Origin: an uncultured delta proteobacterium
Lineage (GTDB): Bacteria > Desulfobacterota > Binatia > UBA9968
Reading direction: 5' to 3'
Assembly: GCA_963728565.1 (NCBI GenBank)
Contig: CAVSLC010000016.1
Location: 1 to 64,000 of the forward strand
DNA length: 64,000 nt
The first letter of the stretch is position 1, and each line of letters begins with the position of its first letter. A program made the translations under genes and the position numbers. Under the pieces are notes generated by a model. The model was not told the DNA's origin and did not search any database. It was given only the letters and a program-made list of their open reading frames with translations. Of the stretch, positions 8,949 through 58,904 are shown one piece after another.

Positions 8949-9701
8949 ATGGCCGGCATAGACAATAAAGTAGCGATTATTACCGGTAGCGGTGGAGGAA
9001 TTGGCGGCGCCATCGCCCTCCGCTATGCACGAGAAGGCGCCAAACTCGCTCTCGCTGACATCGTTGCCGAGACTGCGAAAAGTCGCGCCAGCGAAATTAA
9101 CTCCATGGGCGGTGACGCTTTTGCCAGCGCAACGGACGTCACCAACAAAGACTCGGTGCGGCAAATGGTTCACACCACACTCGAACGGTGGGGGCGGATC
9201 GACATTTTAGTCAACGTCGCCGGCGGCGCCGATCGCAAGCCGGTGGTGGAGATGACCGAAACCGATTGGGACGCATATCGTTAATATGAACCTCAAATCC
9301 GTGTTCCTCTGCTGTCAAGCTGTGTATGCCGGCGATGTTGAAACAGAAATCTGGCAAAATCGTTAGCATCTCATCCATCTATGGTTTCACCGGAAACGCC
9401 ACCCGTTCAAGCTATGCGGCAGCCAAAGCGGGCGTTGCGGTGTTTACCAAATCCCTCGCTCTCGAGGTCGCCAAGGAAGGTATTAGCGTCAACGCCATCG
9501 CTCCCGGCCGGGTATCCACACCAAGGGTGCGCGGCCACTATTCAGACGAGCAATGGGCGGAAGCGATGGCGCTAGATTCCCGCGGGCCGTGCAGGAACCC
9601 CGGACGAGGTCGCCAGCACTGCCCTTTTTCTCGTTTCCGAGGAGAATCGCTACATCACCGGTCAGACAATTCATGTGAACGGCGCTTGGCTCAACTACTA
9701 A
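8949..9701 (+). CDS. Short-chain dehydrogenase/reductase (FabG-like), frameshifted near 9275-9325 and 9575
   Basis: 'TGSGGGIG', 'DILVNVAG', 'YAAAKAG' (YxxxK), 'VNAIAPG'; C-terminus 'YITGQTIHVNGAWLNY*' in another frame. Confidence 0.88.
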
Positions 9702-9842
9702 GTCGAACTTGTCAGAGGAAATCAAATCCGTAAACAAAGTTTTCCAGACCGGTCAAAAAGTAACAGCTGCGAGGCGCGTAAAATTCGACGAGCGAAGGCG
9801 TACTCTTGATGTACGTCGCAGCGAGATGAACGAGCGGAACGA

Positions 9843-27292: not shown

Positions 27293-28066
27293 TCAGGCGA
27301 TAAGTTGACTGACCGCGGTATAGAGCAGTTGCAAGCTGAGAATCGTCAGAGTCGTCTTGAGGGCGATGCGAAAGAGCCGCTCCGGCAGGCGATTGAGTGC
27401 CAGCTTACCGGCATAGCTACCGACAAAACTGCACAGAACCAGCCCGACCAGCAGCGGGACATAAGGACCGAAGGCAAAACCAAGCAGCGCAAAGCTCACG
27501 ATCTTGAGACCATGCTGGATCGTCATCACCACAGAGTGTGTGCTGACGAACTGGTGACGCCCCTGGCATGCGGGAGCGACAAACGCTCCCACCAACACAC
27601 CGGTCCCGCCCACGAACATCGTCACGATGGTGGTGATCACGCCGACGATGAAAAATTTGATTCTGCCGGTGGAAGCACTTTGGAACTTCGGCGCCCAGGT
27701 CGAGACTAAAATGAAAACCGCGATAACGATCTGCAGCAAATACTTCGGCAGCGCGACGACAACTTGAGCTCCGAGAGCAGCGCCGATGATCGAGCCGATT
27801 AAAAACGGCGCCACAATCGACATCAAAGTTTGACGCCAGCTTAAAACAGCCCTGCTTAGGTTTGAAGCAAGCTGCACCACACCATGAATCGGCACCAACA
27901 CCGTCGGCGATAAGAGATTCGCCATGGTCGCAAGAACCAAGACACCGCCGCCAAGCCCTAGCGCGCCGGCAATCAGGCTTCCCAAAAAAGATACGCCGCA
28001 AAGAACTAGAAATCCGGCCGGCGAAAGATTAGTGCCCTGGGTGAAGAGTTCGAGTAGGTGATTCAC
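27293..28066 (-). CDS. TauE/SafE (TSUP) family transporter
   Basis: 'GALGLGGGVL', 'VPIHGVVQLASN', 'FVGGTG', 'GSYAGK...LPERLFR'. Confidence 0.88.
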   Translation of the reverse strand: MNHLLELFTQGTNLSPAGFLVLCGVSFLGSLIAGALGLGGGVLVLATMANLLSPTVLVPIHGVVQLASNLSRAVLSWRQTLMSIVAPFLIGSIIGAALGAQVVVALPKYLLQIVIAVFILVSTWAPKFQSASTGRIKFFIVGVITTIVTMFVGGTGVLVGAFVAPACQGRHQFVSTHSVVMTIQHGLKIVSFALLGFAFGPYVPLLVGLVLCSFVGSYAGKLALNRLPERLFRIALKTTLTILSLQLLYTAVSQLIA

Positions 28067-29737: not shown

Positions 29738-30832
29738 TTAATGATTACTTACAACAACACAGTGTTCGGGCCGGGCCAGTGCGAAAATCCTTTGGCCCTT
29801 GTCATAAAGCTTGGACGGCGAGCCGACGACCCGAAGCGTGAAAGGATGCGGAGCGAGATCGATGGTGTAGTCGGCGCTCTCGCCGAAGTATATTCTGCGC
29901 TGCACCACACCCGAGAACACATTATAGTCCTGGCGCGCAAGCGTCTCTGCTTCGGACTGAACGGCAGTCAGCACAATGTTGTGAGGACGCAAACAAACCG
30001 CGGCTTCTCCCGTCGTCGAGGCGAGATCCGGGTTGGGCATTACGCCAATTTCCAGCCGCTCGGCTATCTGCATTCGACCGCCACCATCCAGTCGGCCAGA
30101 GAGAATATTTGCTTTGCCGACGAATTCCGCCACAAAGCGGGTCTTGGGACGATCGAAGATTTCAGCCGGTCGCCCGACTTGGACTATCTGACCCCGATCG
30201 AGCACAGCGATGCGGTCCGACGTCGCCATTGCCTCGGCTTGATCGTGAGTCACGTAAACCGTCGTGATAGCAAATTCTTCGTGCAAGCGCCGGATTTCAA
30301 ATCGCATCTCTTCTCGCAGGTTTGCATCGAGATTGCTCAATGGCTCGTCCATTAGTAGGATTTGCGGCTCGACGACCAGCGCCCGTGCCAGCGCCACACG
30401 CTGTTGCTGTCCCCCGGAGAGCTCGGACGAATAGCGGTCTTTCAACTCGGACAAGTGCACGACGCCGAGCAATTTGGTGACTTTCGCGTCGATTTGCTGC
30501 TTGGTGAGTTTTTTGAACTTGAGTCCGTAGGCAACGTTTTGCGCCACCGTCATGTGCGGCCAGACGGCGTAGCTTTGAAAGATCATCGACATGTTGCGCC
30601 GCTCCGGCGGCACGAGATGGGATGGCGACGATATGACTCCACCGTCAACACAAATTTCCCCGGCATCGGGCTGCAGAAATCCGGCGATTAACCGAAGCGT
30701 CGTGGTTTTGCCGCAACCGGACGGACCGAGCAGTGAGACGAATTCGCCGTCCGCGATTTCCAAATGGAGATCGTCGACGGCGGCTGCGTCGGTAAATTTT
30801 TTAGTGAGTCCTCGTATTGAAACGATCGCCAT
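29738..30832 (-). CDS. ABC transporter ATP-binding protein (FbpC/PotA type)
   Basis: Walker A 'GPSGCGKT', 'LSGGQQQR', 'DEPLSNLD', TOBE-like C-terminus. Confidence 0.95.
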   Translation of the reverse strand: MAIVSIRGLTKKFTDAAAVDDLHLEIADGEFVSLLGPSGCGKTTTLRLIAGFLQPDAGEICVDGGVISSPSHLVPPERRNMSMIFQSYAVWPHMTVAQNVAYGLKFKKLTKQQIDAKVTKLLGVVHLSELKDRYSSELSGGQQQRVALARALVVEPQILLMDEPLSNLDANLREEMRFEIRRLHEEFAITTVYVTHDQAEAMATSDRIAVLDRGQIVQVGRPAEIFDRPKTRFVAEFVGKANILSGRLDGGGRMQIAERLEIGVMPNPDLASTTGEAAVCLRPHNIVLTAVQSEAETLARQDYNVFSGVVQRRIYFGESADYTIDLAPHPFTLRVVGSPSKLYDKGQRIFALARPEHCVVVSNH

Positions 30833-35024: not shown

Positions 35025-36469
35025 TTGTGCTCCTTACTGTGCTGCAGGCTCGCTTGCATAAATCGTGGTGATATTTTCTTTCGGGCCTTTGAGCTCCCCA
35101 GCGCGCGAATCAATGGATTCAAAGTTTTGAGCTCGGCCAGCCGAGCTACCAGATCGATGACCCGTCCGGCATTATCCGCCGGCACCGCAAGGCTCGCACA
35201 TTCTTTGAACTTTTCGGCTAACTCACTCCAGCTCATGGGCTTTTCCGGGTGGCCACGAGCAACATCATACCGCCCTTCGATGCTCCGGCCGTTATGAAGT
35301 CTGATGCGAATGCGCGAGCGCACCTGATCGAAACCCAGAGCTTCCAGCTCACCATCGACGTAAAGCCTGACCCGTTTCATCAGTTCAACGACTTTCTTCT
35401 GCCGTACTTTACTATCGGCGAACTGGGCTATTCCGGCCTTGCGCTCGAGCACCGCAATGGCCATGCAAAAAGGAATGCTGAACTTTGCTTCCAGCGCCGT
35501 CTTCGGCATCGGATAAATTAAGGCGTTGGGTACGTTGGAGTTGGTGCCAACCTCAATGGATTCAATATCCGACGCATGGAGATCATGCTCTCTGACCAGA
35601 TCGAGAATCAAGTCCTGGGCCGGATGAGACAGGGACCCCGAAGGGTAAGGCTTGATCGAGATCCCGGGCTCTTCGATAAAATAAGGGCGGCCGAGCCGGC
35701 CGGCAATCTTGCTTTCATCGTAGCCGCCGGCCATGGCGTGATAGAACCCTCGCTGCGCTTCGAGAATGTTGCTGGCAGCGGTAAAGCCGCTCTGCGCTAG
35801 CAGAGCGGCCGTCACACCGTTCTCAGCCGCGCGGCCGGCATGGAGCGGCTTGGTCATGGTACCGAAGTTCTCCCGCAGTCCGGCGGCCATGCTGGCACAG
35901 ATACCGAGAGCCTGAACCAAGACATTTTCCCTCAGCCGCAAAATCTTCCCCACCGCCATCACTGCGCCGAGCCCGCCTATGGTCGCAGTGGAATGGAACC
36001 CTGACTGATAATGGCGCGGATTGATCGAGTCGGCGATGCGGCACTCAACTTCGACTCCGACGATGTACGCCAGCAGGAGCTCCGCGCCGCTAATTCTTTG
36101 TTTCTCGCCGACGGCCAAAACGGCGGCCAGGACCGGTGTCGTCGGGTGCGTCAACAATCCATATACCGCCTCTTTGGACGTGGAGAGCTGCGTATCGTCG
36201 TAGTCCATAGCATGGCCGGCAACACCATTGGCTAATGCCGCTTTAGGCGCCGGCGCCGACCAAGCAGTCCCGAGCACCGCGCACTCTTCCCTGCCGCCGA
36301 AATTCCGGACATGCGCCTGCACAATGCGCGAGCACTCATCGGTCGAGCCCGCCAGCGCCACACCGAGTCCGTCGAGGATGAAACCCCGCGCCAAACGAAT
36401 CACTTCCGAAGGAATATCCTTGTAGCTCACCTTAAAAACGTAATTCGCTACTTCTTGTGTCAAACCCAC
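35000..36469 (-). CDS. MmgE/PrpD family protein
   Basis: 'NGVAGHAMDYDD', 'HPT', 'GFHST', 'KPLHAG', 'KPYPSG', 'AKFSIPF'. Confidence 0.92.
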   Translation of the reverse strand: MGLTQEVANYVFKVSYKDIPSEVIRLARGFILDGLGVALAGSTDECSRIVQAHVRNFGGREECAVLGTAWSAPAPKAALANGVAGHAMDYDDTQLSTSKEAVYGLLTHPTTPVLAAVLAVGEKQRISGAELLLAYIVGVEVECRIADSINPRHYQSGFHSTATIGGLGAVMAVGKILRLRENVLVQALGICASMAAGLRENFGTMTKPLHAGRAAENGVTAALLAQSGFTAASNILEAQRGFYHAMAGGYDESKIAGRLGRPYFIEEPGISIKPYPSGSLSHPAQDLILDLVREHDLHASDIESIEVGTNSNVPNALIYPMPKTALEAKFSIPFCMAIAVLERKAGIAQFADSKVRQKKVVELMKRVRLYVDGELEALGFDQVRSRIRIRLHNGRSIEGRYDVARGHPEKPMSWSELAEKFKECASLAVPADNAGRVIDLVARLAELKTLNPLIRALGSSKARKKISPRFMQASLQHSKEHKWSRTRKP

Positions 36470-36689
36470 CGAAGCTCCTTCAATGCATCAGATTTATCGA
36501 AAAACGCAGGAGACTGATATCAGAACTGGAATCGTTTTTCACCTTGTTTCAAATCGCCACCCGGCATAGAGCGGTCGCTCGAATGACGGTCACTCGCTCA
36601 GCGGCTACTTTGGAAGCCTGGATACAAGGAGGAGTGCCGCGTAGAACCCTTGTTTCGCCGACTACGCATTCTGATGTCCACTTGATTGC

Positions 36690-36718
36690 TTGACACTAGG
36701 AATCACCTACGATACGTT
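36690..36718 (+). promoter_or_regulatory. Sigma-70 promoter for the SAM-riboswitch operon
   Basis: TTGACA-N17-TACGTT; implied start site ~36725, just before the riboswitch. Confidence 0.65.
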
Positions 36719-36736
36719 CACCACTAAATATTCTGA

Positions 36737-36845
36737 ACCTTATTCAGAGTGGTGGAGGGATCGGCCCTTCGAAGCCACAGCAACCGGTTCCGAAAGGAAC
36801 GCTGGTGCTAATTCCAACCCCTGCCATGCGGGGGAAAGATAAGGT
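36737..36845 (+). ncRNA. SAM-I (S-box) riboswitch aptamer
   Basis: P1 ACCTTAT...ATAAGGT; conserved segments CAGAG, GGAGGGA.CGGCCC..CGAAGCC, CAGCAACC, GGTGCTAATTCC, GAAAGATAAG. Confidence 0.95.
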
Positions 36846-36856
36846 GAGGTGATTTG

Positions 36857-36892
36857 AAAACCTCTTCTTATCGACAGAAGAGGTTTTTTTTT
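36857..36892 (+). terminator. Intrinsic terminator of the riboswitch expression platform
   Basis: AAAACCTCTTCT-TATCGAC-AGAAGAGGTTTT plus U-tract; alternative pairing of GATAAGGTGAGGT (36838-36850) with ACCTCTTCTTATC (36860-36872) forms an antiterminator. Confidence 0.9.
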
Positions 36893-36904
36893 GGACAAAA
36901 GTTT

Positions 36905-37705
36905 ATGAGCCTCAGCCTGACAACAGAACAGATTGAACGCTACAGCCGTCAGATACTTGTGCCGGATTTCGGCGGCAAAGGACAAATACGCCTGCGCCAG
37001 GGTCGAATTCTGATCATTGGCGCGGGCGGCTTGGGCTCGCCAAGCGCATTTTATCTAGCCGCAGCCGGCGCGGGCACCTTGGGGTTGATTGATGCCGATA
37101 ATGTCGAACTATCAAATCTGCAGCGTCAGATTCTTCATGCCACCGCCGATCTGGGCAAGACAAAAGTAGAATCCGGCAAAGAGACTCTTACCCAACTAAA
37201 TCCCGACGTCGAGGTGATTACTTATCCTGTAAGGCTTGATTCCGACAATATAGATGAACTCTTTTCGCAGTATCAATTTATTGTTGACGGCAGCGATAAT
37301 TTTGAGACCAAGTTCCTGGTTAACGATGCCGCGGTGCGTTTGAAAAAAGCTTATTCACATGCCGGCATCGTCAGATGGCAGGGCCAAACCATGACTGTGA
37401 TTCCCGGCAAAACTGCTTGTTACCGTTGCCTCTTCAAAGAGCCGCCGCCGCCGGCAGAAATCTTGAATTGCCAGCAATCCGGCATCCTCGGCGCCGTCGC
37501 CGGAACCATTGGCTCGATTCAAGCCACCGAGGCCATCAAGTATCTGATCGGCTTCGAAGAAGGACTGTTGACCGATCGTCTCCTTACTTATGACGCCAGA
37601 GCCATGAAGTTTCATCACGTAGAGGTAAGAAAAGACCCGGATTGCGCGGCGTGCCGGCCGTTGATGACAACCGAGACGCCGGTTTCGAAAATCATCTCGG
37701 AGTAG
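36905..37705 (+). CDS. MoeB/ThiF-family sulfur-carrier adenylyltransferase (no rhodanese domain)
   Basis: 'RYSRQI', 'GAGGLGS', 'SNLQRQ', 'DGSDNF', 'CYRC', 'C..C'. Confidence 0.93.
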   Translation: MSLSLTTEQIERYSRQILVPDFGGKGQIRLRQGRILIIGAGGLGSPSAFYLAAAGAGTLGLIDADNVELSNLQRQILHATADLGKTKVESGKETLTQLNPDVEVITYPVRLDSDNIDELFSQYQFIVDGSDNFETKFLVNDAAVRLKKAYSHAGIVRWQGQTMTVIPGKTACYRCLFKEPPPPAEILNCQQSGILGAVAGTIGSIQATEAIKYLIGFEEGLLTDRLLTYDARAMKFHHVEVRKDPDCAACRPLMTTETPVSKIISE

Positions 37706-37723
37706 CGTTAGAAAGGAAGATTC

Positions 37724-38983
37724 ATGAGTTTTGTCAAAGGACTCCAGTGTCGAGAGTGCGGTCAAGACTACCCTAAAGAGCCGCTGCATGTCTGCGAGAC
37801 TTGCTTCGGGCCACTGGAAATCGTTTACGACTATGACGCCATCGCTAACGCAATCAGCCGCGAAAAGATCGCCGGACGCGACAAAAATCTTTGGCGCTAT
37901 CGCGAGCTGCTGCCGATCGATGGAGAACCGCAGGTTGGGATGTATTCGGGGTTTACTCCGCTGGTCAAAGCCCATCGATTGGCGGAAGCATTAGGAGTGA
38001 AGGAGCTTTACCTCAAAGATGATTCAGTCAATCACCCGACCTTTTCATATAAGGATCGGGTGGTCTCCGTCGCTATCTCCAAGGCTATCGAGTTCGGCTT
38101 CGATACGGTCTCGTGCGCCTCGACCGGTAATCTTGCGAACTCTGTCGCCGCTCACGCCGCCAAAGCCGGGCTCAATTGCTATGTTTTTGTTCCCGACGGG
38201 CTGGAACAGGGAAAAATTATCGGCTCAGCTATTTATGGACCAAAAACGATCGCCATCAAAGGGAACTATGATGACGTTAACCGGATCTGCAGCGAAATCG
38301 GCGATAAGTATGGTTGGGCGTTCGTCAACGTGAATCTACGACCCTACTATTCGGAAGGCGCAAAAACACATGCTTATGAAATCGCCGAACAGTTAGGCTG
38401 GAAGCTTCCTAAACACATCGTGGTTGCCTCGGCGGGCGGAACCATTCTGCCCAAGCTGGCCAAGGCGTTCAAGGAGCTCGCCAAAGTGGGACTGGTGCAA
38501 GATACCGGTTGCAAGATTTACTCGGCGCAGGCCGCTGGATGCGCTCCGATCATCAATGCCCTTCATAACGGCACGGATTTGATAAGTCCGGTAAAGCCCA
38601 ACACGATTGCGAGTTCGATCGCGATTGGCAATCCGGCAGATGGCTACTACGTCGTTCACGCGGTCAAAGAGTCCGGCGGTTGGGGTGAGAGTGTCACGGA
38701 TGAAGAAATTGTTGAAGGGATCAAGCTGCTCGCAAGGACTGAAGGAATTTTTACCGAGCCGGCGGGAGGAACCGAAGTCGCGGTAACCAGGAAACTTATC
38801 CAAAAAGGACGAATTCCGCGTGATGAATCGATCGTTATTAGCATCACTGGTAACGGCTACAAAACTTTTGAGGCGGTAGCCCGCAGCGTCGAGCAGCCCT
38901 ACACGATTAAAGCCACGTTGGAGAATTTCGATCAGCTCTATCAACATCTGAATCCGCCGGTTTCACAGGCGGCAGGCAGCTAA
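37724..38983 (+). CDS. Threonine-synthase-like PLP enzyme (possible phosphohomoserine sulfhydrylase)
   Basis: N-terminal zinc ribbon 'CREC...CETCFGPL', 'PTFSYKDR', 'CASTGN', 'NVNLRPYY.EG.KT', 'TGNGYK'. Confidence 0.88.
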   Translation: MSFVKGLQCRECGQDYPKEPLHVCETCFGPLEIVYDYDAIANAISREKIAGRDKNLWRYRELLPIDGEPQVGMYSGFTPLVKAHRLAEALGVKELYLKDDSVNHPTFSYKDRVVSVAISKAIEFGFDTVSCASTGNLANSVAAHAAKAGLNCYVFVPDGLEQGKIIGSAIYGPKTIAIKGNYDDVNRICSEIGDKYGWAFVNVNLRPYYSEGAKTHAYEIAEQLGWKLPKHIVVASAGGTILPKLAKAFKELAKVGLVQDTGCKIYSAQAAGCAPIINALHNGTDLISPVKPNTIASSIAIGNPADGYYVVHAVKESGGWGESVTDEEIVEGIKLLARTEGIFTEPAGGTEVAVTRKLIQKGRIPRDESIVISITGNGYKTFEAVARSVEQPYTIKATLENFDQLYQHLNPPVSQAAGS

Positions 38984-39076
38984 TTCTATCATGCCGGTGT
39001 AACGGCTTGCATGGCCCCAGGCTACGGACTATGTTAGCTAAGACTAGAACGCCGGTAAGCTTTCAGGAGGATGGTT

Positions 39077-39355
39077 ATGTCGGTTCGAGTTCGTGTTCCT
39101 ACCCCACTGCGCAAATTCACCCAAGGAGTTGACGAGGTCAACGCGCAGGGAAACAATATCCGGTCGATTGTCGAAGACCTGGAAAAAAACTATCCCGGGA
39201 TCAAAGAGCGAATTTGTGACGAGACCGGCAAAGTACGGCGATTCGTCAATGTGTATGTCAATGGCGACGATATTCGTTTTTTACAAAACCTGGAGACCGC
39301 GCTTAAAGAAGGCGACAACATCTCTATCGTTCCCGCCATCGCCGGAGGGCGTTAG
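39077..39355 (+). CDS. MoaD/ThiS/CysO-like ubiquitin-fold sulfur carrier
   Basis: 'VRVPTPLRKFT', 'RRFVNVYVNGDDIRF', 'SIVPAIAGG-R*'; RBS AGGAGG favours ATG 39077. Confidence 0.93.
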   Translation: MSVRVRVPTPLRKFTQGVDEVNAQGNNIRSIVEDLEKNYPGIKERICDETGKVRRFVNVYVNGDDIRFLQNLETALKEGDNISIVPAIAGGR

Positions 39356-39375
39356 CGAAGCATCGCTTTGAGCCT

Positions 39376-40377
39376 ATGGTGAAAGCCAATCACAACTTGC
39401 GGCTGGTTCACGCGCTCCCACGGGAACCAAAAGAGATCGGCTCGGTGCTCGATCTCATCGGCAACACTCCGCTGCTGGAGATCCGCAAGATTACCGAAGG
39501 CTTGCCTGCCGGAGTTCGCATATTTGCCAAATTAGAAGGGTTCAATCCGGGCGGTTCGGTTAAGGATCGGCCGGCGTTGCGGATGATTCAAGAAGGGATT
39601 CACGCCGGAACTCTAACGACCGACAAAGTCATTCTTGATTCAACCTCGGGCAACACCGGCATCGGCTTGGCGTTAATCGGTAGAGTGTTGGGCTATCCCG
39701 TCGAGCTGGTGATTCCGGCCAACGTTAGTATTGAGCGCAAGCAGATTATCCAGGCTTACGGTGCCAAAATTACCTTCAGCGATCCGCTAGAAGGCTCTGA
39801 TGGCGCGATCCGGCTTAGCCGCGAAATTCTACGAGCCAATCCCGACCGTTACTTCAAACCCGATCAATATTTTAATTCCATGAATCCACAGGCTCACTAC
39901 GAAACAACCGGCCCGGAAGTCTATCGTCAAACCGATGGCAAGATCACTCATTTCGTCGCGGGTATCGGAACCGGTGGAACCATAATGGGGACGGGGCGTT
40001 ATCTTAAAGAGTTGAATCCGGGCATACAGATTATTGCTGTCGAACCCGATGACGCCCTACACGGTCTCGAGGGGCTCAAGCACATGGCCAGCTCAATCGT
40101 GCCCGGCATCTATCATGAAGAGGAGCTGGATCGTAAGATTCCGGTCTCAACCGAAGATGCCTATGCAATGGTGTACCGTTTGAGCCAAGAAGAAGGAATT
40201 TTAGTCGGCCAGTCATCGGGCGCAGCCATGTTTGCCAGCCTGAAAATAGCACGCAAGCTGCATTCCGGCATTATCGTGACGGTTTTTCCTGATTTCGGGG
40301 ACAAGTACCTATCCACCAGCCTCTGGGTCGGCTGGCGCGACCGAATGGCGGTTGGCAACCTGAAGTTTTCGATTTAG
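39376..40377 (+). CDS. cysM: Cysteine synthase (CysM-like) PLP enzyme
   Basis: 'IGNTPL', 'KLEGFNPGGSVKDR', 'TSGNTG', 'GIGTGGT', 'GQSSGA', 'PDFGDKYLS'. Confidence 0.88.
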   Translation: MVKANHNLRLVHALPREPKEIGSVLDLIGNTPLLEIRKITEGLPAGVRIFAKLEGFNPGGSVKDRPALRMIQEGIHAGTLTTDKVILDSTSGNTGIGLALIGRVLGYPVELVIPANVSIERKQIIQAYGAKITFSDPLEGSDGAIRLSREILRANPDRYFKPDQYFNSMNPQAHYETTGPEVYRQTDGKITHFVAGIGTGGTIMGTGRYLKELNPGIQIIAVEPDDALHGLEGLKHMASSIVPGIYHEEELDRKIPVSTEDAYAMVYRLSQEEGILVGQSSGAAMFASLKIARKLHSGIIVTVFPDFGDKYLSTSLWVGWRDRMAVGNLKFSI

Positions 40378-40380
40378 AAA

Positions 40381-40638
40381 ATGAAGAAGAAGCGAGAAGC
40401 AGTCCGGGAGAGAATCTACCTCACGTTCCCCAGGACTCTGGTGCGAGAACCCGTGCTGTCTTCAATGGCAAAGCAATTCGACGTGGTTTTCAACATTCGC
40501 GGCTCAACTGTCACGGCCGAGATGGCATTGATGGCTCTCGAGATCAATGGCGCACAGACCGAAGTAAACAAAGCCGTTGCATGGCTCAAGGAAAAGGGAG
40601 TGACGGTCGAGCCCATCGAAAAAAACGTGGTCGAGTAG
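40381..40638 (+). CDS. Stand-alone NIL-domain protein
   Basis: 'YLTFP...REPVL...FDVVFNIR...LEING...AVAWLKEKGVTVEPIE'. Confidence 0.8.
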   Translation: MKKKREAVRERIYLTFPRTLVREPVLSSMAKQFDVVFNIRGSTVTAEMALMALEINGAQTEVNKAVAWLKEKGVTVEPIEKNVVE

Positions 40639-41100
40639 CTATGGCGCGAAGGCGGATATCGATATAACCAAAGCTCCGCCTTCATGCGGCGGCCCACCTA
40701 GTAGAAAATAACCCTGGTTTTGCAGTCGCACTGTGGTATCCAACAAAGGCTTCGTACCCTCGGTCAAGCGAACCTTCAAAGCGATTTGTTTATCTTTTGT
40801 GTCTTGAGGCGAGATGGCAAGCGACCTGCCTCCGGGAATTTCAAATGTTGCATTATCGTTCCACGGAACCGCCTGGCTATCTTCTTTCAGCAGGCGATAA
40901 GAACGATACTTCATCACTTTCAATTGCCTCTCCATTGGCTTAAGCCGCGCATCGAACTGATCGCTTTCGTTTGACGCTAGGATGGTGCCGATCTTTACCT
41001 GAACAGGCCTCGATCCAGTCTCGGCGCCCTCCGCGTACACCGCCAGCAATAAGAGGCTAGAAAGAAGGCTTAGTTTCAGAAGGTTCCGTAGAAGAGTCAT
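40639..41100 (-). CDS. Exported hypothetical protein, third gene of the ECF sigma operon
   Basis: Signal peptide; overlaps the 3' end of the anti-sigma gene. Confidence 0.7.
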   Translation of the reverse strand: MTLLRNLLKLSLLSSLLLLAVYAEGAETGSRPVQVKIGTILASNESDQFDARLKPMERQLKVMKYRSYRLLKEDSQAVPWNDNATFEIPGGRSLAISPQDTKDKQIALKVRLTEGTKPLLDTTVRLQNQGYFLLGGPPHEGGALVISISAFAP

Positions 41101-41599
41101 TCTCGCTTTCTTGAGGTTGGTACAGCCAAATCACCGTGGTGTTCGTTTCACCCTCATGTAGCAGGGCGACATTGCGTCCGTATGCATCGATCGATTCAAC
41201 CGTAGCCAAATTGTCGCTCTGGGTGCCGATTTTTGCATCGGGGAGGAACGAATCGATGGACAATCCTGCGAGCGCAATTACGATCACTGCGGGAATGGCC
41301 CATGCGAGCCTAGGAGCGTTGAAGATGCCTCGAATCCGATCGCCGAGTTCGTCGTACCAATTCCTCTTCTGCGCGATGCGTCGCTGTACGCCCTGCCAAA
41401 ATGGTTCAAATTGAATCTCTGACCCATTCGATTCCAAGACCGACCGCATAGTGGAATGGAGACGTTCCAACCGGTGCCTCTCTTCGCGACAGGCGGCACA
41501 GACTTCAAGATGGCGACCGGTCGCCTCGGCTTGCGTCGCGGCGAGTTCGCCATCAAGCCAGGCTCCGACAGTTTCTCTAGTAGTTTCACAGTTACTCAT
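41057..41599 (-). CDS. Anti-sigma factor with zf-HC2 domain and TM helix
   Basis: 'C......WLDGEL......HLEVCAAC' (HxxxCxxC), then a TM segment; ATGA-like overlap with the sigma gene. Confidence 0.88.
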   Translation of the reverse strand: MSNCETTRETVGAWLDGELAATQAEATGRHLEVCAACREERHRLERLHSTMRSVLESNGSEIQFEPFWQGVQRRIAQKRNWYDELGDRIRGIFNAPRLAWAIPAVIVIALAGLSIDSFLPDAKIGTQSDNLATVESIDAYGRNVALLHEGETNTTVIWLYQPQESENDSSTEPSETKPSF

Positions 41600-44524: not shown

Positions 44525-46015
44525 CTAGCGTTCCACTTCCGGCCGCTCCCAGCGAAGCACGGGTTTTCTGGCGGCCTTAGCTTCGTCGAGTCGACGTACC
44601 GGAGTGGTATGCGGTGCATTCTTTACTAAGTCCGGAGTTTCGCGGGATTCCTGGGCGATCGCGATCATTGCTTCAATGAATCGATCGAGCGTTTCAGGCG
44701 TTTCAGTCTCGGTGGGTTCGATCATCAACGCTCCCGAAACCACCAGGGGAAAATAGATCGTCGGCGGGTGAAATCCATAGTCGAGCAATCGCTTGGCGAT
44801 GTCCAGAGTTGAGACGCCATTTCTGTGTTGATTCCGATCGTTGAACACACACTCATGCATGCACGGCTCGTTATACGCGAGCTGATAATGCCGTTCCAAC
44901 TTGCTCCTGATGTAATTGGCATTGAGCAGCGCCATCCGGCTGGTTTCTTCCAGCCCATCGCCGCCAAGCGAAAGAATATAGGCATAAGCCCGGACCAGCA
45001 CGCCGAAATTGCCGAAAAATGATCGCACGCGCCCGATCGACGCCGGCAGGTCCTCGATCAACTCATAACCGTTAGCGGTTTTTACAATCCGAGGCGTCGG
45101 CAAGAAATCGCGCAGGAACGTTTTTACCCCAACCGGACCGGCGCCCGGCCCGCCACCGCCGTGCGGCGTGGAAAAGGTTTTGTGCAGATTCATATGCAGC
45201 ACATCGACGCCCATATGGCCCGGTTTGGCTATTCCCATCAAGGCGTTTAAATTGGCGCCGTCCAAGTACACCAAACCACCCTTGTCGTGCACAACCTCGG
45301 CGACCGCTTCAATATTTTTCTCGAAAATCCCAAGTGTGTTCGGGTTGGTAATCATCAGTGCTGCTACATCCTTATCCATGGCGTTGGCCACAGCCGCGGC
45401 TGCGATCACGCCCTGCTCATCGGAGGATACTTGCACGACGTCATAGCCGCACAGCGTGGAGCTCGCCGGATTTGTCCCATGGGCGGTATCCGGCACAATG
45501 ATCTTCTTGCGCGAATTTCCCTGGGCTGAAAGGTAGGCGCGGATCAGCATCAAACCCGTTAACTCACCTTGGGCGCCGGCGGAGGGCTGAAGGCTGACAT
45601 CATCCATGCCGCTAATCTCGGCGAGCATCTGCTCAAGACCAAAAAGCAATTCCAGCGCGCCCTGATTCAGAGCCGGCGGCGCGAGCGGATGTACGAGCGA
45701 GAAGCCGGGATAACGCGCCACCACTTCATTGATCTTCGGATTGTACTTCATGGTACAGGAGCCAAGCGGATAGAACTGGCTCTCGATCGCATAATTGCGT
45801 TGCGATAAACGGGTGAAATGACGCAGCAGCTCAAGCTCGCCTAGCTCTGGAAAGTCCGCGATATCCTGACGCAAATAAGTTTCAGGAATGCTCTCCGATG
45901 CCGCTGGTGTTTTATCCGGCCAGGAAAAGGCGGTTCGTCCGGGCGAGCCGCTCTCGAAGAGCAGTCGCTGCGAGTGATTGGACTGTGGCGGGTCAGTTCG
46001 AGATGGCTCGGACAA
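44525..46015 (-). CDS. gcvPB: Glycine dehydrogenase subunit 2
   Basis: 'PLGSCTMKYNP', 'AHGTNPAS', 'NLHKTFSTPHGGGGPG', 'IEPTETE'. Confidence 0.97.
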   Translation of the reverse strand: MSEPSRTDPPQSNHSQRLLFESGSPGRTAFSWPDKTPAASESIPETYLRQDIADFPELGELELLRHFTRLSQRNYAIESQFYPLGSCTMKYNPKINEVVARYPGFSLVHPLAPPALNQGALELLFGLEQMLAEISGMDDVSLQPSAGAQGELTGLMLIRAYLSAQGNSRKKIIVPDTAHGTNPASSTLCGYDVVQVSSDEQGVIAAAAVANAMDKDVAALMITNPNTLGIFEKNIEAVAEVVHDKGGLVYLDGANLNALMGIAKPGHMGVDVLHMNLHKTFSTPHGGGGPGAGPVGVKTFLRDFLPTPRIVKTANGYELIEDLPASIGRVRSFFGNFGVLVRAYAYILSLGGDGLEETSRMALLNANYIRSKLERHYQLAYNEPCMHECVFNDRNQHRNGVSTLDIAKRLLDYGFHPPTIYFPLVVSGALMIEPTETETPETLDRFIEAMIAIAQESRETPDLVKNAPHTTPVRRLDEAKAARKPVLRWERPEVER

Positions 46016-47339
46016 GGCGATCGATCCCTTCTCTATCGTTCATCTCGGTGACACATACAAGCAAGCAATCCGGTAGCTCGGGATACCATTTCGCCAAACT
46101 AATTCCGGGCATGATTCTTCTCTCTGCACAGCGACGCATGATCTCGTCGAGCTGTTTCCCCCTGACCACGAACTCATTGAAAAACGGCGCCGTGAAGCAA
46201 GCTTCGACTGAGGAGTACTGGATCAAACGGTCAAACGCTTCATGAGCACGCGCTACATTAACCTCCGCCAAACGACGCATGCCGGTCTTTCCCATAAATG
46301 CCATATAAACAGTTGCAGCCGTCGTGCACAGCGTCTGGCTGGTGCAGATATTCGATGTCGCCTTCTCCCGGCGAATATGTTGCTCCCGGGTGGCCAGGGT
46401 CAACACATAGCCGCGCCGGCCTTCGCCATCGACAGTCTCGCCGACAAGCCTGCCGGGCAGGTTGCGCATAAATTTACGCGCGGTCGCGAGGAAACCAAAT
46501 CCGGGTCCGCCCAGCGCCATGGGTACTCCCAAGCTTTGCCCTTCGCCCACCGCGATATCGACGCCGAACGCTCCGGGCGGCTTTAACACCCCGAAAGCGA
46601 GAGGCTCCGTGGTTGCGGTGATGAGTTGAGCACCGGCGCGCTGGCAGAGATCATGTAGCGGGGCCAGGTTCTCAATCACTCCGAAGAAGTTTGGATAGCC
46701 TACCAGCACGCACATTGTCCCTTCGTTCAGCTGGCGCGCCACCTGATCGATATCGGTTGCTCCGCTGCCGTCAAAAGGAATCTCTTCCAGGCTGACATCG
46801 GTCAGATTGCGGAGATAAGTAGCAAGCACGGCGCGATACTGCGGGTGAAGTGCGCGGGAGACTAAAACCCGCCTTCGGGACGATGATTGAATGCGACGCG
46901 ACATGAGAATCGCTTCAGCGCTCGCCGAAGCGCCGTCATAAACGCCGGCATTGGAGACTTCCATCCCGGTGAGCTGGCAGATCAAGGTCTGATACTCGAA
47001 AAGAACTTGCAAAGTACCCTGGCTCACCTCCGGCTGGTAGGGAGTATAGGAGGTCGAGAACTCCGAGCGTGAAATAATCGCATCGACCGCGCTCGGGATG
47101 AAATGATGATAGATGCCGCCGCCGAGATAAAGCTCCCAATCGTTTGCGGCGGCATTCTTGGCGGCAAGAGCGGCCAGTCGTTGGCGCACTGTTAATTCAT
47201 TGACGCCGTCCGGCAAATTGATTTTGGCCGTCGAACGAAACTTTTCTGGAACATGGCGGAATAGATCTTCGACGCTGTCCACTCCAATCGCGTCAAGCAT
47301 TCGTTCTTTGTCCGCCTCCGTGTGCGGCGTGTAGCTCAT
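45993..47339 (-). CDS. gcvPA: Glycine dehydrogenase subunit 1
   Basis: 'YTPYQPEVSQG.LQ', 'YDGASA', 'TREQHIRREKATSNICT'. Confidence 0.97.
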   Translation of the reverse strand: MSYTPHTEADKERMLDAIGVDSVEDLFRHVPEKFRSTAKINLPDGVNELTVRQRLAALAAKNAAANDWELYLGGGIYHHFIPSAVDAIISRSEFSTSYTPYQPEVSQGTLQVLFEYQTLICQLTGMEVSNAGVYDGASASAEAILMSRRIQSSSRRRVLVSRALHPQYRAVLATYLRNLTDVSLEEIPFDGSGATDIDQVARQLNEGTMCVLVGYPNFFGVIENLAPLHDLCQRAGAQLITATTEPLAFGVLKPPGAFGVDIAVGEGQSLGVPMALGGPGFGFLATARKFMRNLPGRLVGETVDGEGRRGYVLTLATREQHIRREKATSNICTSQTLCTTAATVYMAFMGKTGMRRLAEVNVARAHEAFDRLIQYSSVEACFTAPFFNEFVVRGKQLDEIMRRCAERRIMPGISLAKWYPELPDCLLVCVTEMNDREGIDRLVRAISN

Positions 47340-47348
47340 AGATTGGGA

Positions 47349-47788
47349 TTATTCCTCGTCCTCATCATCGTCTTCGGCCTCGTCGTTCTCTCATCATCGT
47401 CTTCCTTTTGCTGCTCGATATATTCCGCGTATTCCTCAGCGCTCATCAAATCTTTCAGATCGTCCATGTCCTGCATCTCAACCCGGATCATCCAGCCATC
47501 TCCATAGGCATCATCATTGATTGTTTCCGGGCTGTCAGGAAGCGAGTCATTGATTTCCAACACCGTTCCGCTCACCGGCGCATAGATGTCCGACACCGCT
47601 TTGACCGATTCGACGGCGCCGAACGGATCGTCTTTTACAATCTTCTCGCCGATCTCCGGCAACTCGACGAAAACGATATCACCGAGTTCCTCCTGCGCAT
47701 ACTCGGTGATGCCAATGGTTGCTGTTTTGCCCTCGACCAGAACCCATTCGTGTTCTTTTGAATATCTGAGTCCCTCAGGAATCTCCAT
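47349..47788 (-). CDS. gcvH: Glycine cleavage H protein with acidic tail (frameshift near 47390)
   Basis: 'YSKEHEW', 'AVESVKAVSD' (lipoyl lysine); restoring one base gives '...KEDDDEENDEAEDDDEDEE*' at 47349. Confidence 0.95.
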
Positions 47789-47818
47789 GACCTTCCTCCT
47801 TAGCCTGCTAACGCCGTC

Positions 47819-48898
47819 TCAGCGCCGGTAAAACGGCAACGGCACTGTCTTGGCGCGAACTCGTTTGTTGCGGATTTCGACTTCAAGTATATTTTCGGCG
47901 CGGCCTTCTTTCGCCTCGACATATCCAAGCGCGATCGACCGTCCCAGCGTCGGCGATCGGGTGCCGCTGGTTACTCTGCCGATACACCGTCTATCTTTCA
48001 ACAACCGATACTCACTGCGCGCGATGCCGGGTTCGATCAGCTCCAGGCCGACAAGTTTGCGTTCAACGCCTGCTTGTTTCTGCCTTAGCAAGACTTCACA
48101 ACCTATGAAAGAGCCTTTTGAAAATTTCACCACCCATTGCAGTCCTGCCTCCAACGGAGTCGTGTTGTCGTCGAGTTCGTGACCATAAAGAGGATAAGCT
48201 TTCTCCAAGCGCAAGGTGTCGCGCGCGCCGAGCCCGGCCGGCACCAAACCCGCCGGCGCGCCGGCATCGAGTAGATCGTGCCAAAGCTTTTCGGCGTCTT
48301 GGGAAGAACAATACAGCTCGAACCCGGCTTCACCGGTATAACCCGTGCGGGCGATCAGGCAGCAAGTGCCGGCAACTTCGCTATCGGCAAAATAGAAGGA
48401 TTTGATGTCGGCGAGAGCAATCGGTACCAGGGGCTGCAATATGGTTTCTGCCAGCGGCCCCTGTAATGCCAATTGCGCATAGTCTGCGCTGACATTTTCT
48501 ACTTGAATCTCTCCGGTTGCATGCTGCCGCAGCCATTTGAAATCCTTCTCGCTATTCGATGCGTTGACGCAAATAAGAAAATCATCCGGATGCCGCTTAT
48601 AAAAGATTACGTCATCAATCACCCCGCCGTGGTCATTTAAAAGCAAATTATACTGAGCTTGATACACTTGCATGCGCGCGAGATCATTAGCAGTAAGCCT
48701 CTGGCACATCGCTTCTGCTCCGGCGCCGCGCACTGCAATCTCGCCCATATGGCTGACATCGAAAAGTCCGGCCCGGCTGCGCACGGCGATATGTTCGGCG
48801 ATGACACCGCTGTACTGGACCGGCATTTCCCAACCGGCAAACTCAACCATGCGCCCGCCGGCGAGGCGATGAGCAGCGTATAAAGGGGTTCGCTTCAT
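47819..48898 (-). CDS. gcvT: Aminomethyltransferase (T protein)
   Basis: '[10 protein letters not shown]', 'FDVSHMG', 'RTGYTGE.GFE', '[11 protein letters not shown]'. Confidence 0.97.
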
Positions 48899-48932
48899 GA
48901 GGTCCGAAGAAGTTAGGAGGAAGCTGGCTTGG

Positions 48933-49793
48933 CTAACGTTCGCGTTGAATCGAATCCTTGGCCGCCTTCAGAGTGTTATACAGCAGCATGCAAATGGTCA
49001 TTGGACCGACGCCGCCGGGCACAGGGGTGATCGCGGATGCTCGTTCCTTAGCGGTTTCAAATTCAACGTCACCAGTAAGTTTACCGTTGGACAAACGATT
49101 GACGCCGACGTCGATGACGACGGCTCCAGGCTTGATCCAGTCGCCTCGAACCAATCCCGCTTTGCCGATTGCCACGACCAATACATCCGCCCGGGCTACT
49201 TCATCGCGCAGGCTTGCTGTGCGAGAATGACAAATTGTCACTGTGGCATGCTTTTCGAGCAACATCAGCGCTACTGGTTTGCCAACGATATTGCTCCGGC
49301 CGACGACCACAGCATTCTTGCCTTTGAGAGCACAGCCCGCCGCCTCGAGAAGTTTCATAACCCCCAACGGCGTGCATGGCCGAAATCCATCGGCGCCGAT
49401 AACCAGCATTCCCTGGCTCACTGGATGGAAACCATCGACATCTTTGAACGGTGACACGGCTTGGAGGATTCTTTCCGAGCGGATGTGAGCAGGAAGCGGC
49501 AGTTGAACCAGAATGCCGTGAACATCTTTATCTTTGTTCAAACTGTGAACCAAGGCAAGCAGTTCCTTTTCCGAAACAGTCGCGGGAAGGAAGTGCTCAA
49601 AAGATTTTATTCCCACTTCTTTACAGGCTTTTTCTTTGTTCTTTACATAAATATGGGATCCCGGATCATCGCCAACCAACACAACAGCTAGTCCCGGCGC
49701 CATCCCCCAACGCCGTTCCAGCCCGTCAACTTCCTCTTTGATTTTCTTTTGAACTTCTCTGGCGACGGCTTTGCCGTCGATGATCGATGCCAT
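48933..49793 (-). CDS. folD: Methylenetetrahydrofolate dehydrogenase/cyclohydrolase
   Basis: 'IIDGK', 'GILVQLPLP', 'KDVDG', 'PCTP', 'GRSNIVGKP', '[10 protein letters not shown]'. Confidence 0.97.
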
Positions 49794-50171
49794 GCCTACC
49801 TCTTGGGGAATTGACAATGTAATGGAGAAAAAAACATTCTAGAGAAGCGACGTTCCTATTGGCATGCCACGCACTAAGCCAAAGGTCAACCCTAATCGCA
49901 GGCTGGCTGCCGGCGAAAACTCGCTGGTAAATTTTCAAATTTCGCGCTTTTCTGTCAGTCGCAGAGTAGCGCCTCTTGATCGTCCAAGCAAAAAAATTTT
50001 ACAGATGGCATGCAACGAATAGAATCTTGGAGATGTAAGCCGGCACAGGTGGCCGCCCCTGCCGGCGCCTGTATCGCCAAACCGACTCTAAGATTGCATT
50101 TATGCCCCCTGCCGATCTATGGTTTTTGACAGATGCGGTGGTAATTTAATGCGCGACCAACGAGGAGATGT

Positions 50172-57857: not shown

Positions 57858-58904
57858 ATGGATAGAGACAATCGGATAAATTTTCTTGTTTATTTACGAT
57901 ATCTATTCGGCCGATTCTGGCTGGTCATTATCTTTCTAAGCCTCTCAACAACTTCCAATGCAGAGCCTTTACGGATCGCCTATACGTCCATTGCCGTGGT
58001 TTACGGCCCGCTCTGGATCACCCAAGAGGCGGGAATCTTCAAAAAGTACGGCATCGATCCGGAATTCATCTACATCGCCGGCGGGCCGCCGTCGTTGCAA
58101 GCCTTGATCGCAGGCGATGTCGCCCTCTCCTTCACCGCTGCCGGTGCCACCGTGGCGGCCAATCTCTCGGGCTCTGATGTCGTGCTGCTCGGCGCCAGCA
58201 TTGATTCCCTACCTTTCGAACTCTGGTCGATTCCCCGCATCAAGCAGCCGGCCCAACTCAGAGGCACAAAGCTTGGGGTCAGCCGCATCGGCGCGACCAC
58301 GGATTTTGTGGCGCGCTATCTGCTGAAGAAATGGGGCATGCAAGCCGACAAAGACGTCGGCATTTTTCAAGCCGGTTCTGGGCCGCAAGTCTTTGCCGCT
58401 CTGAAGAGCGGCTCGGTTCAGAGCGGCGTGCTTTCGATCGGTCCCGAGACACTGCGGGCCGAGAGCGAAGGATACATTCGTCTGGCCGATGTTCCATCTG
58501 AATTGGTTTATCCGTTTGGGCCCTTCGCCGCGCGCCAGTCGTTTCTGAAGAAAGAACCCGATCTGGTCACGCGCTTTATGAAGGCTTACGTGGAGGGGAT
58601 TCATCGATTTAAAACCGATAAAAGAACCGCGCTGACGACACTGGAGAAATATACCAAGCAAAAGACCACTCCTGCCGTCGAGAAAATTTACCAAGTCTAC
58701 GCGACGAAACATTTCAAGAGAGTCCCGGAAGCTACGCAGGCGGGAGTTCAAACGATCTTAGACGAGCTCGCTGCTACACGGCCGATACCGCCCCGGATTG
58801 AGCCCGAGAGGTTCGTGGAATCGAAATTCGTTCGTGAATTGGTCTCCAGCGGTTTCGTCGATAATCTCTATAAGGAGCGTCAGGCCGCACGCCCACCTCC
58901 GTAA
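57858..58904 (+). CDS. NMT1/THI5-like substrate-binding protein
   Basis: Signal/TM segment; 'PLWITQEAGIFKKYG', 'LRGTKLGVSRIGA'. Confidence 0.85.
   Translation: MDRDNRINFLVYLRYLFGRFWLVIIFLSLSTTSNAEPLRIAYTSIAVVYGPLWITQEAGIFKKYGIDPEFIYIAGGPPSLQALIAGDVALSFTAAGATVAANLSGSDVVLLGASIDSLPFELWSIPRIKQPAQLRGTKLGVSRIGATTDFVARYLLKKWGMQADKDVGIFQAGSGPQVFAALKSGSVQSGVLSIGPETLRAESEGYIRLADVPSELVYPFGPFAARQSFLKKEPDLVTRFMKAYVEGIHRFKTDKRTALTTLEKYTKQKTTPAVEKIYQVYATKHFKRVPEATQAGVQTILDELAATRPIPPRIEPERFVESKFVRELVSSGFVDNLYKERQAARPPP

Follow-up and report, generated by a model that had tools for sequence, protein, structure and literature searches.

A probable SAM-repressed operon for carrier-dependent sulfur amino acid synthesis in a Binatia-like bacterium, with a NIL-domain protein beside the carrier

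We analysed a 64,000-nucleotide (nt) stretch of DNA, hereafter the window, from an uncultured delta proteobacterium of the Binatia lineage (GenBank assembly GCA_963728565.1, contig CAVSLC010000016.1, positions 1 to 64,000). Between 36690 and 40638 it carries a riboswitch leader and five genes, which encode an activating enzyme (E1) of the MoeB/ThiF type, a homologue of threonine synthase (ThrC), a small sulfur carrier, a CysM-type cysteine synthase-like enzyme and a stand-alone NIL-domain protein. Our overall reading is that this is probably an operon, repressed by S-adenosylmethionine (SAM), through which a Binatia-like bacterium makes sulfur amino acids with the help of a sulfur carrier. The ThrC-like protein belongs to a clade whose genes are regularly linked to sulfur carriers and, in many loci, to SAM-I riboswitches, and we assign it with good confidence to the MetM type of homocysteine synthase, in which carrier sulfur would replace the phosphate of O-phosphohomoserine. 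The MetM/MetO system under a SAM riboswitch is already known; what is new here is an operon that places one carrier with two pyridoxal phosphate (PLP) enzymes and, above all, a regular partnership between the carrier and the NIL domain that includes cleavable fusions of the two.

Riboswitch leader and operon

The leader and the genes comprise the following features.

36690-36695, plus strand: possible −35 hexamer TTGACA, read from the sequence (weak evidence)
36737-36845, plus strand: SAM-I (S-box) riboswitch aptamer (RF00162, 89.9 bits, E 4.2e-20)
36838-36872, plus strand: antiterminator pairing of the P1 3′ strand with the 5′ arm of the terminator (from a fold of 36826-36878)
36856-36893, plus strand: intrinsic terminator, a 13-bp hairpin and U run, predicted to be the SAM-bound OFF state (from folds)
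36905-37705, plus strand: MoeB/ThiF-type E1 adenylyltransferase, 266 amino acids (aa) (PF00899, 1.4e-80)
37724-38983, plus strand: MetM-type (ThrC-like) PLP enzyme, 419 aa, with an N-terminal four-cysteine zinc ribbon (PALP, 4.8e-69); predicted homocysteine synthase dependent on the carrier thiocarboxylate
39071-39355, plus strand: CysO/MetO-like sulfur carrier of the ThiS/MoaD fold, 94 aa (PF02597, 2.7e-17)
39376-40377, plus strand: CysM-type cysteine synthase-like PLP enzyme, 333 aa (TIGR01138, TIGR01136)
40381-40638, plus strand: stand-alone NIL-domain protein, 85 aa, without cysteine (PF09383, 2.4e-14)

The leader is a classical transcriptional OFF switch, with its response to SAM predicted from the aptamer match and the folds. 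An earlier note on this DNA, made from the sequence alone, had recognized a SAM-I aptamer here, and the RF00162 match exceeds the gathering score of 44.4 by a wide margin, covers the model from 1 to 108 of 108, including the whole four-way junction, and is the sole match in an Rfam gathering scan of the entire window. The same aptamer scores 99.5 bits with a covariance model built in this analysis. Folding of 36730-36900 yields the four-way aptamer and the 13-bp hairpin (36856-36888) followed by the U run, with a minimum free energy of −66.4 kcal/mol (z −4.78) that none of 200 shuffled sequences equalled. Taken alone, the terminator folds at −15.6 kcal/mol (equalled by 2 of 200 shuffles), and the antiterminator, in a fold from which the 5′ half of the aptamer was omitted, at −14.7 kcal/mol (5 of 200). 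Bases 36859-36872 are common to both, and because the antiterminator uses the P1 3′ strand together with the 5′ arm of the terminator, its formation excludes both P1 and the terminator. The mutually exclusive pair that the note had described is thus borne out by the folds. Its promoter fared less evenly: the hexamer at 36690-36695 is a perfect TTGACA, but the −10 element at the correct spacing is weak, and a simple consensus scan made no promoter call at the leader (four sites in 36400-41200, against 3.3 expected). That simple promoter and terminator scan did not list the leader terminator either, and the terminator is called from the folds.

All five genes after the leader lie on the plus strand with intergenic gaps of 3-87 nt. 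Pfam and NCBIfam assignments agree on the order proposed earlier, namely moeB-like, thrC-like, carrier, cysM-like and NIL. The start of the E1 is placed at ATG 36905, as TTG 36854 falls within the terminator. The flanking genes run in the opposite direction, with two MmgE/PrpD genes upstream and, downstream, genes for a hypothetical protein, an anti-sigma factor and an extracytoplasmic function (ECF) sigma factor.

A ThrC-like enzyme of probable MetM type

An exhaustive search with the ThrC-like protein returned 1933 cluster representatives at E ≤ 1e-30. The locus survey used throughout comprises the best 80 of at least 599 matching stretches in species genomes (55-70% identity), found with an alignment of the best representatives as query; it is anchored on the MetM-like protein, and the open reading frames (ORFs) of the 80 loci were searched with the window's five proteins. 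Among the phyla represented are Binatota, Planctomycetota, Acidobacteriota, Nitrospirota, Cyanobacteriota, Chloroflexota, Verrucomicrobiota and Thermodesulfobacteriota. A FastTree tree of 174 rows places the window protein and all 80 loci in a single 96-row clade (value 96), which is split from three canonical ThrC sequences at 100; with this small outgroup and quick method, only the split is trustworthy. The closest relatives, at 85-99% identity, come from bins named 'Candidatus Binatia' and 'Deltaproteobacteria bacterium'. A gene order identical to that of the window's operon occurs in only two of the 80 loci (L001 and L002), both Binatia-like.

The protein departs from threonine synthase at its N terminus and around its active site. 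Five solved threonine synthases align with it only from residue 56-58 onwards; the first approximately 55 residues form a four-cysteine zinc ribbon that canonical ThrC does not have, and the ribbon cysteines C9, C12, C24 and C27 are kept in 55, 55, 59 and 50 of 59 relatives, respectively. The Schiff-base lysine motif of a fold type II PLP enzyme is intact, with S108, K110 and R112 invariant in the 59 relatives. At 30 positions, a residue conserved in at least 90% of the 59 clade members is different in three ThrC proteins from Nitrospirota, and these positions include R206 and Y209, beside the E211-G212-x-K214-T215 motif.

Gene context adds three kinds of linkage. A carrier gene lies just downstream of the MetM-like gene in 65 of the 80 loci, and L026 has one more, masked by an overlapping ORF call. 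With our covariance model, which was built from nine Rfam-confirmed aptamers, SAM-I was detected immediately upstream of the MetM-like gene, in the same orientation, in 28 loci (Rfam was positive in 9 of 18 loci scanned); five loci (L001, L019, L023, L033 and L078) end less than 400 nt upstream of the MetM-like gene. Finally, three Nitrospirota loci (L014, L019 and L023) have a MetM-like gene, a carrier, NIL and a canonical thrC in succession, the last encoding a protein of approximately 360 aa that has no zinc ribbon and matches TIGR00260 at 320-328 bits. In L014 (6986-12384) this thrC is followed by a proposed homoserine kinase (TIGR02535) and an aspartokinase. The gene order in these three loci indicates that the MetM-like paralogue exists side by side with a true thrC, at the branch point of O-phosphohomoserine. 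A cluster of the L014 type encodes both fates of O-phosphohomoserine. In the window itself, no canonical thrC, metA, metX, metY or metB occurs elsewhere in the 64 kb.

The published counterpart is MetM of Streptomyces albulus (Hasebe et al. 2024, Appl Environ Microbiol, via PMC12172450 and PMC13759103; these and the papers cited below are drawn on from the parts of their text available to us). It converts O-phosphohomoserine to homocysteine, and a SAM riboswitch lies upstream of metM (PMC12172450). The same text describes a Microcystis protein that is 51.6% identical to S. albulus MetM and has a MetO-like neighbour; the Microcystis orthologue in our survey (L071) falls inside the MetM-like clade. 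By comparison, Bacillus subtilis ThrC is given in a bioRxiv preprint as only 33% identical to MetM. GapMind 2026 includes MetO, Mec, MoeZ and MetM, and it notes that annotation as threonine synthase is a frequent error for MetM (PMC13759103, S1D text).

The separate clade, the linkage to carriers, the linkage to SAM-I aptamers and the adjacent canonical thrC together point to the MetM/MetO route and not to threonine synthesis. The argument that repression by SAM fits a true ThrC poorly, made in the earlier note from the window alone, gains from each of these. An ordinary threonine synthase is, on sequence and context, very unlikely. Its fullest form, in which a genuine threonine synthase rides in a CysO/CysM-like cysteine operon and homocysteine is made elsewhere, strikes us as highly improbable: the protein passes TIGR00260 thrC (292.7 bits against a cutoff of 167.1) and has the PLP lysine motif and overall fold of ThrC, but also a clade-specific zinc ribbon and an altered active-site motif; its close relatives are always named 'threonine synthase' or thrC in public sources, but GapMind describes such misannotation of MetM; the Microcystis homologue is reported to have in vitro activities related to threonine and 2-oxobutyrate and, given sulfide, no clear MetM activity (PMC12172450), but the genes of this clade keep company with a carrier in 65 loci and with a CysM-type gene in only seven, most loci having the carrier and no CysM-type gene, the control that recurs in 28 loci is SAM-I and not a threonine signal, and three loci have a canonical thrC alongside.

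Several observations weigh against the MetM assignment or limit its reach. Fourteen of the 80 loci have no adjacent carrier; two of these are cut within 850 nt, and seven are Acidobacteriota (L013, L020, L030, L031, L032, L039 and L051), six of which still have SAM-I. The Acidobacteriota loci may have their carrier elsewhere, or their enzymes may use another sulfur donor. SAM-I was not found in 52 of the 80 loci, including all those of cyanobacteria and Nitrospirota, and a full Rfam scan of 12 SAM-I-less loci gave no riboswitch of any class. Orthology to S. albulus MetM, moreover, runs through an indirect chain by way of the Microcystis orthologue and not through a direct sequence comparison.

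With this assignment, thousands of genes now called 'threonine synthase' in Binatota, Planctomycetota, Acidobacteriota, Nitrospirota, Cyanobacteriota and other phyla probably encode homocysteine synthases, and renaming them would change auxotrophy predictions for many uncultured lineages.

The sulfur carrier and its proposed activation

The carrier gene begins 87 nt downstream of the ThrC-like gene. The best solved relative of its product is Mycobacterium tuberculosis CysO (3dwg_C; E 1.9e-24, 88.8 bits), with the alignment running through the terminal Gly-Gly (GG). The window carrier ends in AGGR, with one extra residue, an arginine, beyond GG. A residue beyond GG has to be removed before the carrier can be adenylated, which is a known task of JAB/Mec peptidases. 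Extra residues, one to eight in number, follow GG in 19 of 59 listed unfused carriers (manual reading), and cyanobacterial carriers end exactly at GG. It counts against our scheme that no JAB/Mec gene is present among the 64 ORFs scanned in the window, given a carrier that ends in GG-R, and that the Binatia locus L002 has none within 5 kb.

The E1 consists of a ThiF domain only (266 aa) and has no rhodanese domain. Its best NCBIfam matches are MoeB, MoeZ and UbaA, covering the adenylation part only (profile positions 119-371 of 387, and 14-269 of 392 for MoeZ).

In two other loci, a TusA gene lies directly upstream of a gene that fuses carrier and NIL (L007: 8363-8617; L034: 2766-3020), and the same clusters hold DsrE-like genes and a sulfite-reductase-like gene (L018: 4651-4974; L034: 5663-7284). 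From their position, these TusA and DsrE neighbours hint at a persulfide relay that would load the carrier.

A CysM-type enzyme between carrier and NIL

The CysM-type gene is set between the carrier and NIL genes, with gaps of 20 and 3 nt. From gene context, here and in related loci, it is plausible that one carrier feeds both PLP enzymes. Whether the CysM-type enzyme would make cysteine from the carrier thiocarboxylate and O-phosphoserine or O-acetylserine, by analogy with the mycobacterial enzyme, we regard as evenly balanced.

Related loci bear on the question. A CysM-type gene is present in 7 of the 80 loci (L001, L002, L012, L016, L018, L024 and L034), with a carrier in all seven and MoeB in six, the remaining one (L001) being a contig cut at both ends. 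In five of them (L012, L016, L018, L024 and L034) the CysM-type gene has a Prok-JAB gene as its direct neighbour or one gene away; a JAB gene also occurs in L038. In L012 (6815-14721), one SAM-I aptamer precedes eight plus-strand genes in the order MetM-like, carrier-NIL fusion, CysK, CysM-type, JAB, MoeB, radical SAM and Na/sulfate symporter, so that SAM control of cysteine-type enzymes is seen to recur. The motif GLEGLKHM is common to the window's CysM-type protein and its seven locus homologues, at a place where Escherichia coli CysM has PGIRRW.

Other findings count against a carrier-dependent CysM-type enzyme. Use of the carrier is inferred from gene context. The best NCBIfam match, TIGR01138 cysM, reaches 366.8 bits and stays below its cutoff of 394.2, although the broader TIGR01136 cysKM is passed (350.2 bits, cutoff 344.15). 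Against solved structures, the protein scores 208 bits with M. tuberculosis CysM and 243 bits with CysK, and is thus no nearer to the former. An ordinary CysK is already encoded within the L012 operon, and the CysM-type enzyme may have another task.

We therefore also consider, as a less likely but real contender, an operon in which the MetM-type enzyme and the carrier make homocysteine and the CysM-type enzyme works without the carrier, either as an ordinary cysteine synthase B that uses sulfide or thiosulfate or upstream, as a sulfide supplier for MoeB. The best NCBIfam model being of the E. coli type agrees with this, as do a deletion relative to CysK that the window protein shares with E. 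coli CysM (in an alignment with K-12 CysK and CysM), a loop likewise in common, and the scores just given for M. tuberculosis CysM and CysK. A MoeB without rhodanese leaves a sulfur supplier missing, a vacancy that this alternative would fill, and a role in methionine synthesis only would suit SAM control better than cysteine synthesis does. What speaks for carrier use instead is the gene's place between carrier and NIL, the JAB gene beside the same gene type in five other loci, which is the CysO/CysM/Mec arrangement (types 4c and 4d in the available text of PMC1779556), and the CysK of L012, next to which a second plain cysteine synthase would be redundant. If the carrier-dependent reading is true, a single protein thiocarboxylate supplies both sulfur amino acids through a one-carrier, two-PLP-enzyme operon.

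Two sets of candidates were set aside. Lower-scoring 'CysM' matches in L012 (first copy), L036, L038 and L076 proved to be ordinary CysK on examination, and for those in L027, L046, L050 and L080 the assignment to CysK is by score alone; these matches are not included in the counts above. A role for the CysM-type enzyme as cystathionine beta-synthase is unlikely, as no cystathionine lyase lies nearby and repression by SAM would probably act in the wrong direction.

The NIL domain beside the carrier

The earlier note had left the NIL gene as an unexplained add-on, yet it is the gene most tightly tied to the carrier. The window protein matches the NIL family at 53.4 bits (gathering score 24) over residues 11-77, and its nearest solved relative is the C2 domain of the E. 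coli methionine transporter ATPase MetN (3dhx_A, E 1.9e-4). In 29 of the 80 loci a NIL domain stands beside the carrier or is fused to it, as a separate ORF in 22, usually the gene right after the carrier, and as a fusion in seven (L007, L012, L016, L018, L027, L034 and L029, the last cut by a contig end). The fusions run from the carrier through P-A-I-A-G-G and a short linker into NIL, with the boundary mostly 8-13 residues past GG as measured by motif.

Such fusions also occur beyond the survey. In a search with the L012 fusion, the best 120 of 4875 proteins (E ≤ 0.001) all combine PF02597 with PF09383 in 167-189 aa; where named, they are called 'MoaD family protein', 'molybdopterin synthase sulfur carrier subunit' or 'hypothetical'. 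A search for longer proteins with the window NIL gave four matches, one of them ThiS plus NIL, an 85-aa query providing few index words. GG is invariant in all 76 aligned fusions, and so is the asparagine of an N-I-R motif. Adenylation of a carrier requires a free GG, and the fusions must therefore undergo cleavage. Four of the six complete fusion loci have a JAB gene within 5 kb. Residues beyond GG, one to eight of them, occur in 13 of 21 carriers that have a separate NIL gene, compared with 6 of 38 that have no NIL (manual reading), a pattern that suggests repeated fission or fusion.

Structure predictions agree with a two-domain protein. In the AlphaFold2 (AF2) model of one fusion, Foldseek matches domain 1 to CysO (3dwg_C, TM 0.92, 52% identity) and domain 2 to the MetN C2 domain (3dhx_A, 3tui_C). 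A solved protein of possibly similar build is the 168-aa 'MoaD related protein' of Thermus thermophilus (PDB 1v8c), which has a CysO-like domain and a further domain past GG. Its alignment with the fusion spans both domains, but their orientation differs (TM 0.47-0.48, rmsd 14 Å). A prediction of the complex of MetM-like enzyme, carrier and NIL scored 0.00 against a mark of 0.32; it was run without controls and counts neither way.

The likeness to MetN suggests what the domain might do. Methionine bound across the C2 dimer locks the MetNI transporter, and mutation of MetN N295 abolishes L-methionine binding to the C2 domain (PMC6233128). N38 of the window NIL aligns with N295. We tentatively propose, by analogy, that NIL is a dedicated partner of the carrier, with methionine or a related end product as the most likely signal that it senses, and that it provides fast feedback at the protein level. 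More speculatively still, NIL might be an appendage of the carrier in the manner of a ubiquitin precursor, fused or encoded by the next gene, which JAB releases and which then acts as a methionine or homocysteine switch gating carrier activation or MetM.

The points against a sensor are specific. The N295-equivalent asparagine is present in 13 of the 22 stand-alone NIL proteins and replaced in nine (seven Asp, two Ser). The fusion model has two confident domains (pLDDT 90.7) but a pTM of 0.54 and no fixed contact between them. NIL is absent from 51 of the 80 loci, including the whole 28-row cyanobacterial clade, so that it is not essential to the route.

An alternative without sensing, which we consider unlikely, is that NIL is a pro-domain or cap that blocks GG until a peptidase acts, with the stand-alone genes as fission leftovers or as adaptors that dock the carrier on MetM. 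The position of the fused domain directly behind an invariant GG (76 of 76) is what a cap would require, residues beyond GG are distributed among carriers with and without NIL as if stop codons had split fusions, and NIL is missing from many loci; but stand-alone NIL proteins are retained in several phyla with a conserved core (P24, G57 and V76 in 22 of 22, I-R-x-A in 20-21 of 22), the N295-equivalent asparagine is invariant in the fusions, and two further methionine systems contain NIL, as the C2 domain of MetN and in the NIL/ferredoxin protein of the DUF39 route (PMC5764234). NIL was also considered as a persulfide relay and rejected: the family has no conserved cysteine column, and the window protein no cysteine at all.

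The judgement that this system is under-described, with which the earlier note closed, holds for one part of it. The MetM/MetO route was published in 2024 and is in GapMind 2026; the carrier-NIL link we found described nowhere, and a full-text literature search of a limited collection returned nothing linking NIL with thiocarboxylate, threonine synthase or MetM. This link is the first concrete handle on NIL function outside MetN and, if the sensing proposal is true, gives NIL a common end-product-sensing role in the MetN, DUF39/NIL-ferredoxin and MetM/MetO contexts.

Proposed mechanism

In the scheme that we propose, high SAM would let the aptamer hold P1 so that the terminator forms, and low SAM would free the P1 3′ strand to form the antiterminator, so that all five genes are transcribed. 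The terminal arginine of the carrier would be removed by a JAB/Mec-type peptidase encoded elsewhere. The rhodanese-less MoeB would adenylate the exposed Gly-Gly, and sulfide or a persulfide would then yield the thiocarboxylate. From this carrier sulfur and O-phosphohomoserine, the MetM-type enzyme would produce homocysteine; the CysM-type enzyme would draw on the same thiocarboxylate and on O-phosphoserine or O-acetylserine to produce cysteine, as mycobacterial CysM does with CysO. NIL would bind an end product, most likely methionine, and damp the use of the carrier at the protein level, on top of the riboswitch. In other lineages NIL would be translated as a C-terminal extension behind GG and cut off before the carrier is activated. 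If this is true, riboswitch and NIL make up two layers of feedback in the operon, acting on one carrier that supplies sulfur for homocysteine and cysteine alike.

Relation to known systems

The closest known system is MetM/MetO of S. albulus, which likewise has a ThrC-homologous PLP enzyme followed by a ThiS/MoaD-type carrier, with a SAM riboswitch upstream. It needs a MoeB/MoeZ-type E1 and trimming of the carrier by JAB/Mec, and the window carrier, too, has a residue beyond GG. The window operon differs in including the E1, a CysM-type enzyme and NIL, in an E1 that lacks the rhodanese domain of MoeZ, and in having no Mec/JAB gene nearby. As presented in the available text of the citing papers (PMC12172450, PMC13759103), the S. 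albulus system has separate MetO, MoeZ and Mec, and neither a NIL partner nor a shared CysM is mentioned there.

The CysO/CysM/Mec/MoeZ system of M. tuberculosis (3dwg, 3dwm, 3dki) resembles the window in its CysO-like carrier and in a CysM-type gene right after the carrier, and the five related loci with JAB by the CysM-type gene extend the likeness. Unlike that system, the window has no JAB and an E1 without rhodanese, is under SAM control and includes a MetM-type enzyme and NIL, and its PLP enzyme is, by the scores given above, no closer to the mycobacterial CysM than to CysK. Operons of ThiS/MoaD, E1, JAB and cysteine synthase were catalogued by Iyer et al. 2006 as types 4c and 4d, with neither threonine synthase nor NIL mentioned in the available part of that paper, and the Wolinella-type Hcy arrangement is its type 4e (PMC1779556).

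The window shares with the Wolinella route a short E1 without rhodanese and, as predicted, a thiocarboxylate as sulfur donor, and related loci lie among genes of sulfate assimilation (for sulfite reductase-like, PAPS reductase, TusA and DsrE proteins). In Wolinella succinogenes (HcyS/HcyF/HcyD/MetY), a protein thiocarboxylate gives the sulfur for homocysteine, the E1 is short and rhodanese-less, and the sulfur acceptor is a MetY-type O-acetylhomoserine sulfhydrylase of fold type I. The acceptor in the window is instead a ThrC-type enzyme of fold type II, and the 64 kb hold no MetY.

Two further systems share the NIL domain. The C2 domain of E. coli MetNI is of the same Pfam family, is the nearest solved relative and has its N295 matched by an asparagine in the window NIL; it sits at the C-terminal end of an ABC ATPase and locks a dimer, whereas the window NIL is an 85-aa stand-alone protein or, in relatives, a domain behind the carrier GG. 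The ABC ATPase that the window does encode (29738-30832) carries TOBE_2, not NIL. In methanogens and Desulfovibrio, a NIL/ferredoxin protein is genetically required for the DUF39 route to homocysteine, its molecular role being left open in the available text (PMC5764234). There too NIL is tied genetically to non-canonical homocysteine synthesis, but the substrate of that route is aspartate semialdehyde and not O-phosphohomoserine, and neither Fer4 nor DUF39 occurs in the operon or the rest of the window.

Other features of the window

A short-chain dehydrogenase gene at 8856-9733 (plus strand) is broken into two adh_short halves in different frames with stops between them, and adjoins transposase remnants at 9952-11177 (minus strand), where DDE_Tnp_1_6 and DUF772 are separate ORFs. 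Two more genes are split, a family III CoA-transferase in two ORFs (62911-63895, plus strand) and an asparaginase in two overlapping ORFs (1592-2597, plus strand); each is a possible pseudogene or assembly frameshift. At 44525-49817 (minus strand), 4 kb downstream of the SAM-I operon, genes for glycine cleavage (T, H and a two-subunit P protein) form an operon with folD, and the Rfam scan of the window gave no glycine riboswitch. Five NMT1/THI5-like solute-binding paralogues are scattered across the window (6709-7545, 14794-15789, 57858-58904 and 60955-62921), which also encodes two luciferase-like monooxygenases and a TauE sulfite exporter-like protein (27293-28066). By the families they belong to, the NMT1/THI5-like, luciferase-like and TauE-like genes may serve the use of organosulfur compounds or sulfonates.

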